A stretch of DNA of 64,000 nt from IMG/VR virus record IMGVR_UViG_3300040751_001717; one strand, given 5' to 3'. This document shows, piece after piece, positions 13,540 through 19,631 of this stretch (position 1 is its first letter; each line of letters begins with the position of its first letter). The translations under genes and the position numbers were made by a program. Under the pieces are notes generated by a model that saw nothing but the letters and a program-made list of their open reading frames with translations, was not told where the DNA came from and ran no database searches. The DNA comes from an uncultured virus (IMG/VR IMGVR_UViG_3300040751_001717). Its lineage: Duplodnaviria; Heunggongvirae; Uroviricota; Caudoviricetes.

Positions 13540-15153
13540 ATGGCAACACCTGTTTTAAACAATGGGATTTTCTTGAGAGACACTAGCTACAAAGCTAGCT
13601 CTCACGTTGATTCCTATCACCTAGCTAACATGCTTGGTGGAACAGAACCTACTGATATGGGTCCTGTTGATCTTTGGGCAATGGCTCAGAAAGTTGAAAT
13701 GCCACTATACCAGATGGCATCTTTTGGTGGTAAAAACACTATCAACGTTGATAACGCTCGTGGTGAGTACAAGTGGCAGGTTCCTGTAGCTCAGGATCTT
13801 CCTTACATCTTGGAATCACAAACTGGTTCTCTCGGTGCTGATGGCGTACCTTTCACCATTAAATTGAACAAGCGTTCTTTTGGTCACGGTGATATCATCA
13901 CTTATGACAAGTACAACGGTATGGAAATGTACATCACTTCTGATGACATTCTTCCTGTAACCGATGGTTTTGTTTACACTGTACAGTTGGTTAACAACGA
14001 CAACAGTGCTCCTATCGATGCTGACACTTACTTGAAGGCTGGTACTAAATTGTTCCGTAAAGGTTCTGCTCGTGGTGAATACGGTGAGCGTTTCTCTGAC
14101 ATCGGTGAATTCGGTACTGGATTCCGTGAGTTCTACAACTTCGTAGGTGGTGCTGAAGCTCACGTACACTACTCTGTTTCTTCTCGTGCAGACATGATGA
14201 TCAAAGGTGGTATGCGTGCAGATGGTACTGTACCTGTAACTGAGATCTGGAGAAACTTCGATCAGAACATGGATCCATCTATCACTAGCTTGGAAGACAT
14301 GGTATCTAGAATGGGTAAAGATGCTGTTAAGCGTGCATTCGATAACGGTACTCTTTCTCGTACTTTCTTGACATCTATGGAAGCTGCTCACTTGAGCAAA
14401 ATTGCTAGCGATATCGAAACTTACTTGATGTGGGGACAAGGTGGTCGCGTTAAGCAAGACGGACCAGATGATGTACGTCTATCTGTAGGTTTGTGGAAGC
14501 AATTGGATAACTCATTCAAGCGCATCTACAACAAGTCTGGTTTCTCTCTAGACATGTTCAAAGCAGAATTGTACAACTTCTACCAAGGTCGTGTAGAGTT
14601 ACAAGGACCAGATCCAAATCGTCAGATTATCGTTCAAACTGGTTTGGGTGGTATGAAGATGGTGAACGAAGCTATCAAAGCTGAAGCTAACGCATCAGGT
14701 TTGTTGGTTCGCGCTACTGATATTGGTGCAGTTTCAGGTACTAACATGGACTTGAACTTTGGTTTCGCTTACACTTCTTACGTTATTCCATTCTTGGCAA
14801 ACGTTAAGTTCGTGTTGAACCCTGCATTTGATAACTTGCACACTAACGATATTGAGAACCCTCTTATCGATGGTCACCCATTGAGCTCTTACAGCTTTGT
14901 AGTATTTGATGTTACTGAAAACGGTAACGACAACATCTACTTGTTGAAGTTGAACTGGGATAACCAATTGAAGTGGTTCTACCAAAATGGTACTATGGAT
15001 TACATGGGACGTACTCAAGGATTCCAGTCTTCTGGAAACTTTAATGGTTACCGTGTATTCATGTCTCAAACGATGCCAGCTATCTGGGTTAAAGACGCTA
15101 CTAAAGTGTTGAAGATCGTAATGAGAAACCCAATCACTGGTGGATCATTCTAA
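13540..15153 (+). CDS. major capsid protein
   Basis: 537 aa; position after portal and scaffold; strong highly-expressed codon bias (TTC, AAC, ATC, CGT, GGT); GLWKQL motif; followed by a terminator. Confidence 0.9.
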   Translation: MATPVLNNGIFLRDTSYKASSHVDSYHLANMLGGTEPTDMGPVDLWAMAQKVEMPLYQMASFGGKNTINVDNARGEYKWQVPVAQDLPYILESQTGSLGADGVPFTIKLNKRSFGHGDIITYDKYNGMEMYITSDDILPVTDGFVYTVQLVNNDNSAPIDADTYLKAGTKLFRKGSARGEYGERFSDIGEFGTGFREFYNFVGGAEAHVHYSVSSRADMMIKGGMRADGTVPVTEIWRNFDQNMDPSITSLEDMVSRMGKDAVKRAFDNGTLSRTFLTSMEAAHLSKIASDIETYLMWGQGGRVKQDGPDDVRLSVGLWKQLDNSFKRIYNKSGFSLDMFKAELYNFYQGRVELQGPDPNRQIIVQTGLGGMKMVNEAIKAEANASGLLVRATDIGAVSGTNMDLNFGFAYTSYVIPFLANVKFVLNPAFDNLHTNDIENPLIDGHPLSSYSFVVFDVTENGNDNIYLLKLNWDNQLKWFYQNGTMDYMGRTQGFQSSGNFNGYRVFMSQTMPAIWVKDATKVLKIVMRNPITGGSF

Positions 15154-15165
15154 TACATGAAGTAG

Positions 15166-15195
15166 ATCGGGGGGAGTAAAATCCCTCCGATTTTT
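15166..15195 (+). terminator. intrinsic terminator after MCP
   Basis: ATCGGGGGGA-GTAAAA-TCCCTCCGAT followed by TTTT. Confidence 0.8.
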
Positions 15196-15299: not shown

Positions 15300-16310
15300 A
15301 TGACAACAATTATTGAAAAGTATCAAGCAAACAAGAAAAAGCAGATTGCTATTCGACCTATGTTCAACCCAGGAAGAGACAATATGGGTCTAGAAAAATA
15401 TAATCTGACCTTGTTTGATAATGTTTATCATGAAGAGCAACTAGCTTGTCTAGAGGCTAATGGTGTTAAACGTTATGTAACTGGACTTAATGAATTTGCA
15501 CCAGAGATTAAGCTTCTACCTCCTTCTGAGAGAGATGCAAAATCTAAGCAAATCAGAGAGCTCGTATCTGAGCTTGAAAAAGAATTAGCAGCTAATATTG
15601 TAAACCCAGATGATGCAGAGTTTTGGAATAAGATTAAACTTCTTCGTCCGGATAATGATGAGTTTTGGGGTAGAATCAGTCTTCGCTGCGGTAATGAACC
15701 AGTTTATCTAGATCCTGCTAAAGATCCTTATGATCTTATTAAGCTTTGTGCAATTGAAGCAGGTGGTTTTTCAATGGTTGGTAAAAGCTTAGAAGCTGCA
15801 AGCAAAATGGCTAAAGCACCTAAGTTTTATTTAGACAAAGTAGAAACTACGGTTTCACATAGAACTGAAATTACCAAGCTTCGTAATAAAGCTCTATCGG
15901 AGCTTCAAAAACTTTACGATAAGAATGCTAATAAGTTATTCTTGATTGCTAAGGTAATCGATGTAGATAGTGTTCAGTATACCAAGAGTACACCTAATGA
16001 CGTACTATATGAAAATATGGATGCGTTTATTAATGGTTTATCTGTAGAAAAAGATAAAAAGAAAACAGCACAGCAGTTCCTTTCAGTTGTAGATGAGGAT
16101 ATGGAAACATTGAAACTACGTGCAATTGTGAAGGATTCAGCTAGATATAAGGTTATTACTAATAAATCAGATGGTATGATTTACCATACCTTCAGTGGTG
16201 CACAAATGGGACGCACACCTAGTGATGTTATCGAGTTCCTAAAAAATCCACTAAACGAAGAAATTCTGATGCAGGTAATGACCGATGTAGAAAGTTATTG
16301 GAACAACTAA
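15300..16310 (+). CDS. conserved crAss-like head-module protein
   Basis: 336 aa directly after MCP; YVTGL and FLKNPLN motifs. Confidence 0.7.
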   Translation: MTTIIEKYQANKKKQIAIRPMFNPGRDNMGLEKYNLTLFDNVYHEEQLACLEANGVKRYVTGLNEFAPEIKLLPPSERDAKSKQIRELVSELEKELAANIVNPDDAEFWNKIKLLRPDNDEFWGRISLRCGNEPVYLDPAKDPYDLIKLCAIEAGGFSMVGKSLEAASKMAKAPKFYLDKVETTVSHRTEITKLRNKALSELQKLYDKNANKLFLIAKVIDVDSVQYTKSTPNDVLYENMDAFINGLSVEKDKKKTAQQFLSVVDEDMETLKLRAIVKDSARYKVITNKSDGMIYHTFSGAQMGRTPSDVIEFLKNPLNEEILMQVMTDVESYWNN

Positions 16311-16321
16311 ACAACTATAAA

Positions 16322-16483
16322 ATGGCTAATAAAGATATTCAGGATTTTGAACTAGAAAAAGAAGATGACTTTCAGGATATGATGGAAAGTGATTTTGCTG
16401 ATTGGGTTAGTGAGCTAGAAGAAGCTGAGCAACCTAAAGCTTGTAGTATTGATGACCCCGAATGTGAAGCCTGTGGTTCTTAA
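16322..16483 (+). CDS. 53-aa acidic mini-protein with an RNR-alpha-like C-terminal Cys tail
   Basis: start set at the ATG at 16322; ends QPKACSIDDPECEACGS. Confidence 0.8.
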   Translation: MANKDIQDFELEKEDDFQDMMESDFADWVSELEEAEQPKACSIDDPECEACGS

Positions 16484-16493
16484 CTAATACATC

Positions 16494-17195
16494 ATGAACA
16501 ACGCAACTCTACAACTCAAAATTAAACAAAGGCTGAATAAGCTTGCTAGCAACGATTATGATAATATCGAGTGCTGGCAAATTGTTGAAGCTTTTAATAA
16601 AGCGCAGCTAGAATGGGTGCGTAGACAGTTGCATGCTAGTAACATCTTCAAAGAAGGTGACGAGCAATCAAAGAGAAGAATAGACGACCTGCAAATTTTA
16701 ATGCAACAAACCAACTTAAATGTGCAGGACCGTGTTTTATTTTATGAGTCAAGCGAGCTACCCTCAGATTACCTAGAGTATAAGAGGGTAGCTACACTTG
16801 CAAAAGACGAGTGTTGTCCTCCTAGAGGCATGACAGTTTACTTAGCAGAAGAAGCTAATGTAGATCAATTACTTAGAGACGTAAACAAAAAACCTAGTTG
16901 GGAGTGGGGAGAAATGTTTGCTACCCTTATTGGTAACCGAGTACGTCTATATACAAATGATGAGTTTGATTTAGTAAGACCGTCTTTGTATTACTATAGA
17001 AAACCAATCAACATTCAAATCGCAGGATGTAAAGATCCCTATACACAAGCTTTATCAGCTGCAGATGTAGAATGCGAATTTAAAGATGATATTGTTGAAT
17101 TGTTGATTGATGAAACAGTAAGTATTCTAGCTGGTGATATTGAGTCTATTATTCAGTATCAGCGCGGTTCTCAATCTGCAGAAAAGAATAACTAA
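16494..17195 (+). CDS. head-tail connector / ring protein
   Basis: 233 aa; FNKAQ, LPSDYL and YYRKP motifs; helical termini as in adaptor ring proteins. Confidence 0.7.
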   Translation: MNNATLQLKIKQRLNKLASNDYDNIECWQIVEAFNKAQLEWVRRQLHASNIFKEGDEQSKRRIDDLQILMQQTNLNVQDRVLFYESSELPSDYLEYKRVATLAKDECCPPRGMTVYLAEEANVDQLLRDVNKKPSWEWGEMFATLIGNRVRLYTNDEFDLVRPSLYYYRKPINIQIAGCKDPYTQALSAADVECEFKDDIVELLIDETVSILAGDIESIIQYQRGSQSAEKNN

Positions 17196-17620
17196 TGGCA
17201 CTACAAAGATTATCTAGACCAAAGGGTGGTGAAAAAGCAGATGAACTAGTTGGAATTCTAGTAGCAGAGCTTTTAAATGCTTCTGTTTTAACGCACAAAT
17301 TGCACCTAAAAGTTTCAGGTACAGGTTCTTATGCTCAGCATATTGCGCTAAACGAGTTTTATGATGCAATTAAAGATGGAGCAGACTCACTTGCTGAACA
17401 ATATCAAGGACACAAAATGATAATTCTAGATACAGACAAAGCACTTATGGACAGTTATATTTTAACATCCGTAGATGATTGTTTGGATTATTTAGAAAAA
17501 TTGTATAATTTAATTAGTGAGGTACAGTCGATGATGACGTGTTCGTCTATTATAAACGAAATGGATACACTGAAGTCAACGATTAATACCGCTAAGTATA
17601 AGTTGAACTTTTTGAACTAA
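17195..17620 (+). CDS. Dps/ferritin-like protein
   Basis: HKLHLKVSG...HIALNEFYD...DSLAEQYQG ferroxidase-type motif. Confidence 0.85.
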   Translation: MALQRLSRPKGGEKADELVGILVAELLNASVLTHKLHLKVSGTGSYAQHIALNEFYDAIKDGADSLAEQYQGHKMIILDTDKALMDSYILTSVDDCLDYLEKLYNLISEVQSMMTCSSIINEMDTLKSTINTAKYKLNFLN

Positions 17621-19490: not shown

Positions 19491-19631
19491 ATGAATTGTC
19501 CAAATTGTAAATCGAAACTTACCTGCGGATGTCAGAAGCGAATTGCCAGTGATGGTAAACAAGTTTGTAGTAGTTGTATTAATAACTATGAAACTAATCT
19601 GAAAGCGGTAACAGTCACAATTAAGAAATGA
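19491..19631 (+). CDS. 46-aa Cys-rich microprotein (not in the ORF track)
   Basis: MNCPNCKSKLTCGCQKRIASDGKQVCSSCINNYETNLKAVTVTIKK*; AAAACCAACA leader; ATGA overlap with the next gene. Confidence 0.8.
   Translation: MNCPNCKSKLTCGCQKRIASDGKQVCSSCINNYETNLKAVTVTIKK

Follow-up and report, generated by a model that had tools for sequence, protein, structure and literature searches.

Results

A small acidic gene lies within a crAss-like head operon

The stretch of DNA analyzed in this study (the window) makes up the opening 64 kb of a viral record that is 75.7 kb long and estimated to be 63% complete. Its genes include a crAss-type major capsid protein gene (13540..15153, + strand; PF23898, E=5e-28), which is followed by a 336-aa gene with no assigned function (15300..16310, +), a 233-aa virion structural protein gene (16494..17195, +; phrog_29507) that served as our synteny anchor, and a Dps/ferritin-like gene (17195..17620, +; phrog_858, PF19174), which is given as context only. 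The 183-nt gap between the 336-aa and 233-aa genes is occupied by a 53-aa mini-gene (16322..16483, +), located 11 nt past the stop of the former and 10 nt before the latter. The terminase, portal, and capsid genes all share the strand of the mini-gene, and the order of the terminase, portal, and PF23898 capsid genes is the same as in the Crassvirales, even though the capsid protein is just 24-28% identical to those of deposited phages. The capsid gene thus puts the mini-gene in a crAss-like head operon. A crAss-like gene set points to a Bacteroidota host, and from this gene set together with the A-rich leaders we infer that the host of this phage belongs to the Bacteroidota. Also present in the region are a terminator-like hairpin at 15169-15187 (+), which sits between the capsid and 336-aa genes and hence upstream of the unit containing the mini-gene, and a 46-aa Cys-rich ORF in the structural operon (19491-19631, +), which has two CxxC and one CxC, is zinc-ribbon-like, and is conserved in many relatives.

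The mini-gene frame begins with ATG and ends with TAA, and its 53-aa product, which terminates in ACSIDDPECEACGS, contains 19 Asp/Glu residues versus 3 Lys/Arg, with cysteines at positions 41, 48, and 51. The ORF is real, and the first-pass annotation of a 53-aa, very acidic ORF among head genes was accurate. Its acidic N-terminal region leads into a conserved helix, the core of which (F25-x2-W28-V29-x2-L32; 16394..16417, +) is particular to the mini-proteins and is a predicted docking element, followed by a copy of the three-cysteine C-terminus of Bacteroidota class Ia NrdA (C41-x6-C48-x2-C51-G-S-stop; 16442..16483, +). An alternative TTG start at 16298 would yield a 61-aa product overlapping the upstream gene, but 53 aa is the better start because the relatives P0040, P0048, and P0092 start at the ATG position. 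Metatranscriptomes (4 runs, contigs only, with small word shares) contained one 151-base contig from a relative, at a depth of 2 and spanning 16257-16403, which is no evidence of the level of mini-gene expression. A scan for sigma-70 promoters gave matches at chance level (11 vs. 8.7) with a consensus that is ill-suited to this host group.

Solely via the 233-aa neighbor gene, 80 syntenic loci were chosen, these being the ones kept out of 596 relatives. The same peptide was present in the same slot in 12 of the 80, one of which is identical to the window, and since these loci were anchored by the neighbor gene, the mini-gene is more than a chance occurrence. The slot lacks the mini-gene in the remaining 68, which makes it unlikely that the gene serves head assembly in general. 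A link between the mini-gene and the Dps/ferritin-like gene was likewise considered and rejected, as the latter occurs in 6/12 loci with the mini-gene versus 36/68 without it. In many relatives, the slot is instead filled by ~3-12 small, very Lys-rich ORFs spanning up to 3.5 kb, which bear repeated MKKGG-like motifs (e.g. L031, L032, L036, L053, L095, L096, L102, and L104) and possibly encode DNA-condensing head cargo. The mini-gene and one Lys-rich ORF are found together in the slot of L028-L030.

The mini-proteins form a large family ending in three invariant cysteines

A protein search with the single sequence found solely itself, and an alignment was needed to reveal the family. Similarly, Pfam and PHROGs returned weak, unrelated matches for the mini-protein alone, the ESM Atlas yielded nothing but unnamed clusters (best 0.91), and no convincing stand-alone mini-gene was detected among 50,697 deposited phage records by tblastn with three members. 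A peptide search, on the other hand, identified 24 viral loci, of which one is identical to the window. The other loci contain short ORFs (32-54 aa, one of them clipped by a contig end) whose surrounding genes are unrelated. A 14-sequence profile then matched at least 744 clusters among 1425 candidates of 17-95 aa, with the three-Cys motif ending 119 of the best 120 matches; family members are mostly 32-60 aa, and the clusters are labeled just "hypothetical protein". Among 1.84 billion representatives of any length, 141 matches of 26-205 aa were found, 135 of which have the three-Cys motif at or within four residues of the C-terminal end, while 9 of the 141 resemble NrdA fragments. The final residues are Cys-Ser-Gly rather than Cys-Gly-Ser in 9 of the 135, an order that is presumably also that of yeast Rnr1.

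Two overlapping DNA patterns each matched about 300 IMG/VR stretches. A set of 240 viral matches to two DNA patterns comprised 214 short stand-alone ORFs, 11 long ribonucleotide reductase (RNR) alpha frames, and 15 that run off the end of their locus. All three cysteines are invariant in 101 aligned members, so the conservation of a terminal CxxCGS, on which the first-pass annotation had staked its reading, was upheld. In a comparison of 231 distinct DNA copies, synonymous sites of the tail codons were free to vary, with both Ser codon families and all three stop codons in use, which argues that selection acts on the protein. Further Cys clusters (five or more Cys) in Cys-rich N-terminal segments are present in 11 of 297 distinct mini-proteins. 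There is also a second subfamily, in which the same tail is attached to a different head with an LTGDMF-like segment (L016-L021:2899-3063, L192:1399-1551, P0183, P0195, and P0206), and a third with the same tail on yet another head (e.g. L285 and L349). The tail thus seems to be attached to several different helices.

The tail corresponds to the C-terminus of Bacteroidota class Ia NrdA

The sole PDB match of the single sequence was the tail of Pseudomonas aeruginosa NrdA (5IM3 residues 942-962; E=0.72), the sole NCBIfam match was to the final part of NF005544, an NrdA model (E=0.003), and the profile also matched residues 874-886 of yeast Rnr1 (PDB 1ZYZ). These scores are weak alone, and the strong evidence, at the level of sequence, comes from the NrdA tails of the hosts. 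When GTDB was searched with a C-x7-C pattern including the stop, 58/58 loci were NrdA C-termini, nearly all of them titled Bacteroidota, and one of the proteins was confirmed to contain an ATP cone together with PF00317 and PF02867. Because these NrdA tails had been picked by motif, we also ran a motif-free comparison in hhalign, for which 9 mini-proteins were collected via the neighbor gene alone and 14 host NrdA tails via PF02867 alone. The two sets aligned over 29 columns with a probability of 97.6 and E=3.4e-12. Both Cys spacings, x6 and x7, are found in the mini-proteins as well as in NrdA, and C48/C51 are the counterparts of the NrdA redox pair. From its sequence, we can conclude that the mini-protein carries, detached from the enzyme, the C-terminus of Bacteroidota class Ia NrdA. 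The initial proposal of a free-standing class Ia RNR alpha C-terminus was therefore borne out, but the nearest tail is that of Bacteroidota NrdA and not the human one.

A conserved helix precedes the tail at a fixed distance

The segment upstream of the tail has a feature that NrdA tails lack. The motif [FL]-x2-[FW]-[VLI]-x2-[LM] occurs in 264/297 distinct mini-proteins versus 0/116 NrdA tails, figures to be read with the understanding that the motif was defined after the alignment was viewed and that the 297 members are related to each other. In all 264 mini-proteins having the motif, it is separated from the first Cys by 7-10 residues. AlphaFold predicted one helix at residues 3-34 followed by a low-confidence coil tail, with pLDDT values of 80-93 for the block covering residues 11-40, such that the modeled protein is simply a single helix plus a coil with three cysteines. 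Head profiles of the mini-proteins and the NrdA tails did not align. Foldseek found 0 matches to this helix-plus-coil model in the PDB, which says little, and the amphipathicity of residues 21-33 was not clearly above that of shuffled sequences (6% reach it).

We also noted a loose F-x-hydrophobic-x-x-x-F stretch, similar to the C-terminus of NrdB, in 98/297 mini-proteins, whereas the strict motif is present in 2/297. This motif was chosen after the data were viewed and is internal in the mini-proteins rather than C-terminal. The pre-helix segment aligned to NrdB C-termini with a profile probability of 3%, a value reached by 1/60 shuffles. Beta-tail mimicry is thus no more than a hint. Separately, the NrdB C-termini of the bacterial genomes G007, G002, G001, and G005 (L678, L679, L682, and L683) are atypical and resemble the pre-helix segment of the mini-protein; this clade consists of Flavobacteriales that keep a chromosomal mini-gene near nrdA. 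Other carriers (G003, G010, and G013) have the usual NrdB ends.

Some Bacteroidota keep chromosomal copies in addition to an intact nrdA

The C-x6-C pattern returned 58 loci from GTDB containing 59 matches, which were divided among 8 NrdA ends, 40 helix-type mini-proteins, and 11 of a related type. The 40 helix-type copies are chromosomal and nearly all from marine Flavobacteriales, and the 11 related-type copies are from Cyclobacteriaceae-like genomes. Among the 15 helix-type neighborhoods viewed, one was phage-like and 14 were flanked by what, judging from their sequences, are housekeeping genes. None of 200 genomes drawn across the phylum has the mini-gene, and 9 short frames were found in 121 genomes of the order. 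Within the family of G001, 8/81 genomes carry it, and in 6 of these it lies about 9 kb from the nrdA end, which is probably one inherited arrangement. Since the mini-gene is widespread in phages and patchy in hosts, phage-mediated movement is suggested; the sequence is too short for a tree.

The three-Cys NrdA tail is present in the same bacterial groups that carry the mini-gene. NrdA was found in 18/18 host genomes tested, 16 with an intact three-Cys tail and 2 broken by frameshifts, and a CxxC end was seen in each of the 14 eukaryote-like NrdA sampled from the order, 8 having the three-Cys form. On these numbers, a tail-less host NrdA was rejected as the partner of the mini-protein. In the host G005, the mini-protein has the x6 spacing versus x7 in its own NrdA.

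It should be noted that five marine Cyclobacteriaceae-type genomes contain the 3' end of a related mini-gene repeated 3 to 11 times (G014:C4:58-13221, G015:C3:3840-68545, and also G016, G458, and G459), whereas a control pattern gave 0. Most of the copies share one orientation and cluster in mosaic islands along with further decayed repeats, and many are startless. The arrangement resembles the outcome of repeated insertion or of cassette accretion.

Near-complete carrier phages show no RNR genes of their own

The 75.7-kb record of this phage (63% complete) contains no RNR barrel. PF02867 and PF00268 were found in 0/15 carrier phages that are at least 90% complete, and G019, the sole complete crAss-like carrier examined, had no RNR alpha, beta, or thioredoxin match, with the qualification that PF02867 detects monomeric class II enzymes weakly (E 3e-4 to 4e-7), such that they could be missed in carriers. 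Because near-complete carriers have no RNR, they would depend upon the host enzyme. These absences also argue against the mini-protein being one half of a split phage RNR, as alpha and beta are both missing from the 15 carriers and G019, although one of the searches behind this rejection had no positive control. The first-pass suggestion that the peptide completes a tail-less phage RNR can likewise be set aside, as near-complete carriers lack alpha and beta and the sampled host NrdA are tailed. Neither the conserved helix nor the chromosomal copies had been noted in that annotation. A phage thioredoxin as the partner was rejected as well: PF00085 was found in 0/5 records, and the thioredoxin-like neighbor described below is Cys-less.

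The absence of RNR is not special to carriers of the mini-gene. Among 11 near-complete crAss-like relatives without the mini-gene, 6 have an RNR and 5 do not, and the small near-complete relatives without it also lack RNR in 4/4 cases. The small-relative controls remove most of the signal from any argument that takes mutual exclusion of the mini-gene and a phage RNR as proof. The RNRs of the relatives are of two kinds, with G033, G038, and G039 encoding a class I alpha of ~545 aa downstream of a beta gene and G034, G035, and G037 encoding a ~620-aa enzyme resembling monomeric class II; the other five near-complete ones have no RNR. There are also large viral records that encode a full eukaryote-like NrdA with the same tail (L495-L499, from G076-G080), which are estimated to be 16-73% complete at 50-261 kb.

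Neither NrdA nor NrdB was found within 1.5 kb of the mini-gene in any of the 214 stand-alone viral loci, 134 of which are at least 2 kb. The commonest neighbors are holin and endolysin genes, one or the other of which is present in 84/214 loci. In 7/214, a neighbor is a Cys-less protein of the thioredoxin fold with a hydrophobic N-terminus (e.g. L260:548-868 and L005:2553-2873). Given the holin/endolysin neighbors elsewhere and the head genes here, the mini-gene is likely a late gene.

Discussion

Putative function of the mini-protein

We consider the chances roughly even that the mini-protein is an extra, loose redox tail that acts in trans upon the host NrdA to sustain the dNTP supply. In the natural enzyme, thioredoxin or glutaredoxin passes electrons to the alpha-tail cysteines, and these in turn reduce the active site of the other R1 chain, which thioredoxin itself cannot reach; the activity of mouse RNR rose up to 3-fold when a second route of reduction was added, and a phosphine reductant works solely via the tail cysteines (PMC4078304). 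By analogy, host thioredoxin or glutaredoxin would reduce the tail of the mini-protein, the reduced tail would hand electrons to the oxidized active site of the host NrdA, and the acidic helix would dock on NrdA, replacing the covalent tether. The dNTP supply would thereby be kept up for phages without a reductase of their own. The fixed distance of 7-10 residues between the helix and the first Cys would suit a docking arm, and strongly transcribed late operons could supply the high concentration that an untethered tail needs. A helper also fits better than an inhibitor because bacteria keep chromosomal copies and neither cysteine of the redox pair varies. The scheme presumes that the gene is expressed, that thioredoxin reduces its product, that the helix docks in place of the tether, and that the effect is stimulatory. 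Since the host NrdA dimer already has two tails, a spare one may be superfluous, and the main point against an extra tail is the late placement of the gene, next to neither RNR nor replication genes, which is awkward for a replication helper. More tentatively, and with doubt outweighing confidence, it may be that RNR-less aquatic phages of Bacteroidota control the host NrdA through a minimal device of two parts, a docking helix and a detached tail that speeds re-reduction, and that marine Flavobacteriales have adopted this device.

Many of the same observations could also describe a decoy, in which the peptide fills the entrance of the NrdA active site or the beta-tail cleft, or ties up thioredoxin, and so damps the host RNR late in infection in a Sml1-like manner, or else tunes RNR in the bacteria that keep the gene. 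The identity of the tail with that of NrdA serves this explanation just as well, its late and lysis gene context suits it, and there is precedent both for a small acidic RNR inhibitor, Sml1 (PMC6382339), and for inhibition of RNR by beta C-terminal heptapeptides (PMC3483043). We nonetheless regard it as unlikely: carriers without RNR depend upon host dNTPs, bacterial hosts keep the gene, both redox cysteines are invariant here, although one would presumably have been lost from a trap, and the likeness to NrdB seen in 98/297 mini-proteins is weak by the strict motif (2/297) and by profile (3%), being moreover internal and chosen post hoc. A rather improbable proposal is that the NrdA tail was co-opted and now works independently of RNR, as a thioredoxin-recyclable thiol buffer or a binder of Zn, Cu, or Fe suited to sunlit, oxidizing waters. 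Three invariant cysteines among many acidic residues would serve this purpose, the first of them lies outside the redox pair and its invariance fits metal binding too, 11/297 mini-proteins have additional Cys-rich N-terminal segments, the phage genes show no linkage to RNR, and a Dps/ferritin-like gene lies 0.7 kb downstream in the window. Such a function, however, needs neither a residue-by-residue NrdA pattern nor Gly-Ser before the stop nor a fixed helix spacing, and the ferritin-like gene does not co-occur with the mini-gene (6/12 vs. 36/68). No metal-binding family in Pfam, PHROGs, or NCBIfam matched the mini-protein, and its three Cys and lack of His differ from the many clustered Cys/His of metallothionein-like proteins.

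Location alone might suggest a late virion or lysis protein, such as head cargo, a redox switch acting on lysis proteins, or an acidic protein that pairs with basic DNA-binding peptides. The mini-gene is tightly packed in the head operon, the slot holds arrays of small Lys-rich ORFs in relatives, and elsewhere its commonest neighbors are holin and endolysins. This is improbable in our estimation, in that 68/80 syntenic relatives do without the mini-gene in the slot, it occurs in phages of unrelated types with differing gene surroundings, and chromosomal copies sit among housekeeping genes in 14/15 neighborhoods viewed; packaging would also be compatible with the delivery of an RNR helper. Finally, the mini-gene could be a remnant without function, or a duplicate of the nrdA 3' end created at an integration site, in favor of which are the decayed 3'-end copies of a related gene in the five Cyclobacteriaceae-type genomes, at 3 to 11 per genome and many without a start. 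For the helix-bearing family, this explanation is already contradicted by conservation of the protein despite free synonymous change, by its own start and a helix absent from nrdA, and by at least 744 clusters and intact syntenic copies, and we give it hardly any credence.

What is new here is a distinct Bacteroidota family, composed of a helix plus three cysteines, whose hosts keep intact NrdA tails. Besides the crAss-like phage studied here, its carriers include numerous other phages from aquatic habitats as well as some Flavobacteriales of marine origin. If the mini-protein does act as an extra tail, it would represent a new auxiliary metabolic strategy, in which a 100-base gene boosts the host enzyme versus a 3.5-kb enzyme being carried, and it would add to phage biology a class of auxiliary genes that is too short for most annotation, yet common in aquatic phages. 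Within the class I RNR cycle, the half that is hardest to see is the re-reduction carried out by the flexible alpha tail, and the dynamics of this tail have been named an open question (PMC11903788). As an extra tail, the mini-protein would be a natural soluble probe for the unseen step in which the tail enters the active site of class Ia RNR. A free tail with a built-in helix makes the tether requirement directly testable, and the mini-protein is a ready reagent for trapping complexes of the tail with NrdA and with thioredoxin. If it is inhibitory, it would offer a naturally occurring peptide that inhibits an RNR of the eukaryote-like type.

Comparison with known systems

The mini-protein shares its C-x6/7-C-x2-C-G-S end residue by residue with NrdAe (the eukaryote-like class Ia enzyme of Bacteroidota), P. 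aeruginosa NrdA, and yeast Rnr1. The natural NrdA tail is described as flexible (PMC9531940), and the mini-protein likewise has its CxxC pair (C48/C51, invariant and included in the profile match) in a predicted coil. Unlike NrdA, it has no ATP cone, no tether, and no ten-stranded catalytic barrel (PF02867), there being no Pfam RNR domain in its 53 aa, and it has a gene of its own and an extra N-terminal helix. The literature searched, largely open-access main texts, described no free class Ia tail peptide, and the RNR-wide surveys consulted mention covalent tails and NrdJb only (PMC9531940, PMC9669993). NrdJb belongs to the split class II enzyme of Pseudomonas aeruginosa, in which a separately encoded C-terminal part provides the catalytic chain with thiol-disulfide exchange (PMC4520616). 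A split RNR of this kind (NrdJa/NrdJb) has an alpha partner without tail cysteines in the same genome, as a rule next to the reducing part, and none was found for the mini-gene: RNR alpha is missing from the 15 near-complete carriers and G019, host NrdA are tailed, and NrdA or NrdB is nearby in 0/214 loci. Sml1 and R2 C-terminal peptides are likewise small and acidic, and they bind the large subunit of RNR, the R2 heptapeptide through a segment with a terminal Phe; the sources consulted (PMC6382339, PMC3483043) mention no redox tail in either, and the resemblance of the mini-protein to NrdB is weak. Another parallel is offered by GrcA/YfiD and T4 Y06I, the spare parts of pyruvate formate-lyase, which are small autonomous C-terminal copies existing beside the full enzyme in bacteria and a phage, and GrcA demonstrates that such a copy can be of use to an enzyme already equipped with this piece (PMC12338860). 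Bacteria with the mini-gene have the same arrangement, a stand-alone C-terminal copy beside an intact enzyme gene. GrcA differs in its glycyl-radical chemistry and in the enzyme it serves, and the mini-protein has no glycyl-radical family match and is thus not a GrcA member. The mini-protein therefore falls outside of NrdA, the split RNRs, and GrcA, but most plausibly it works like them.
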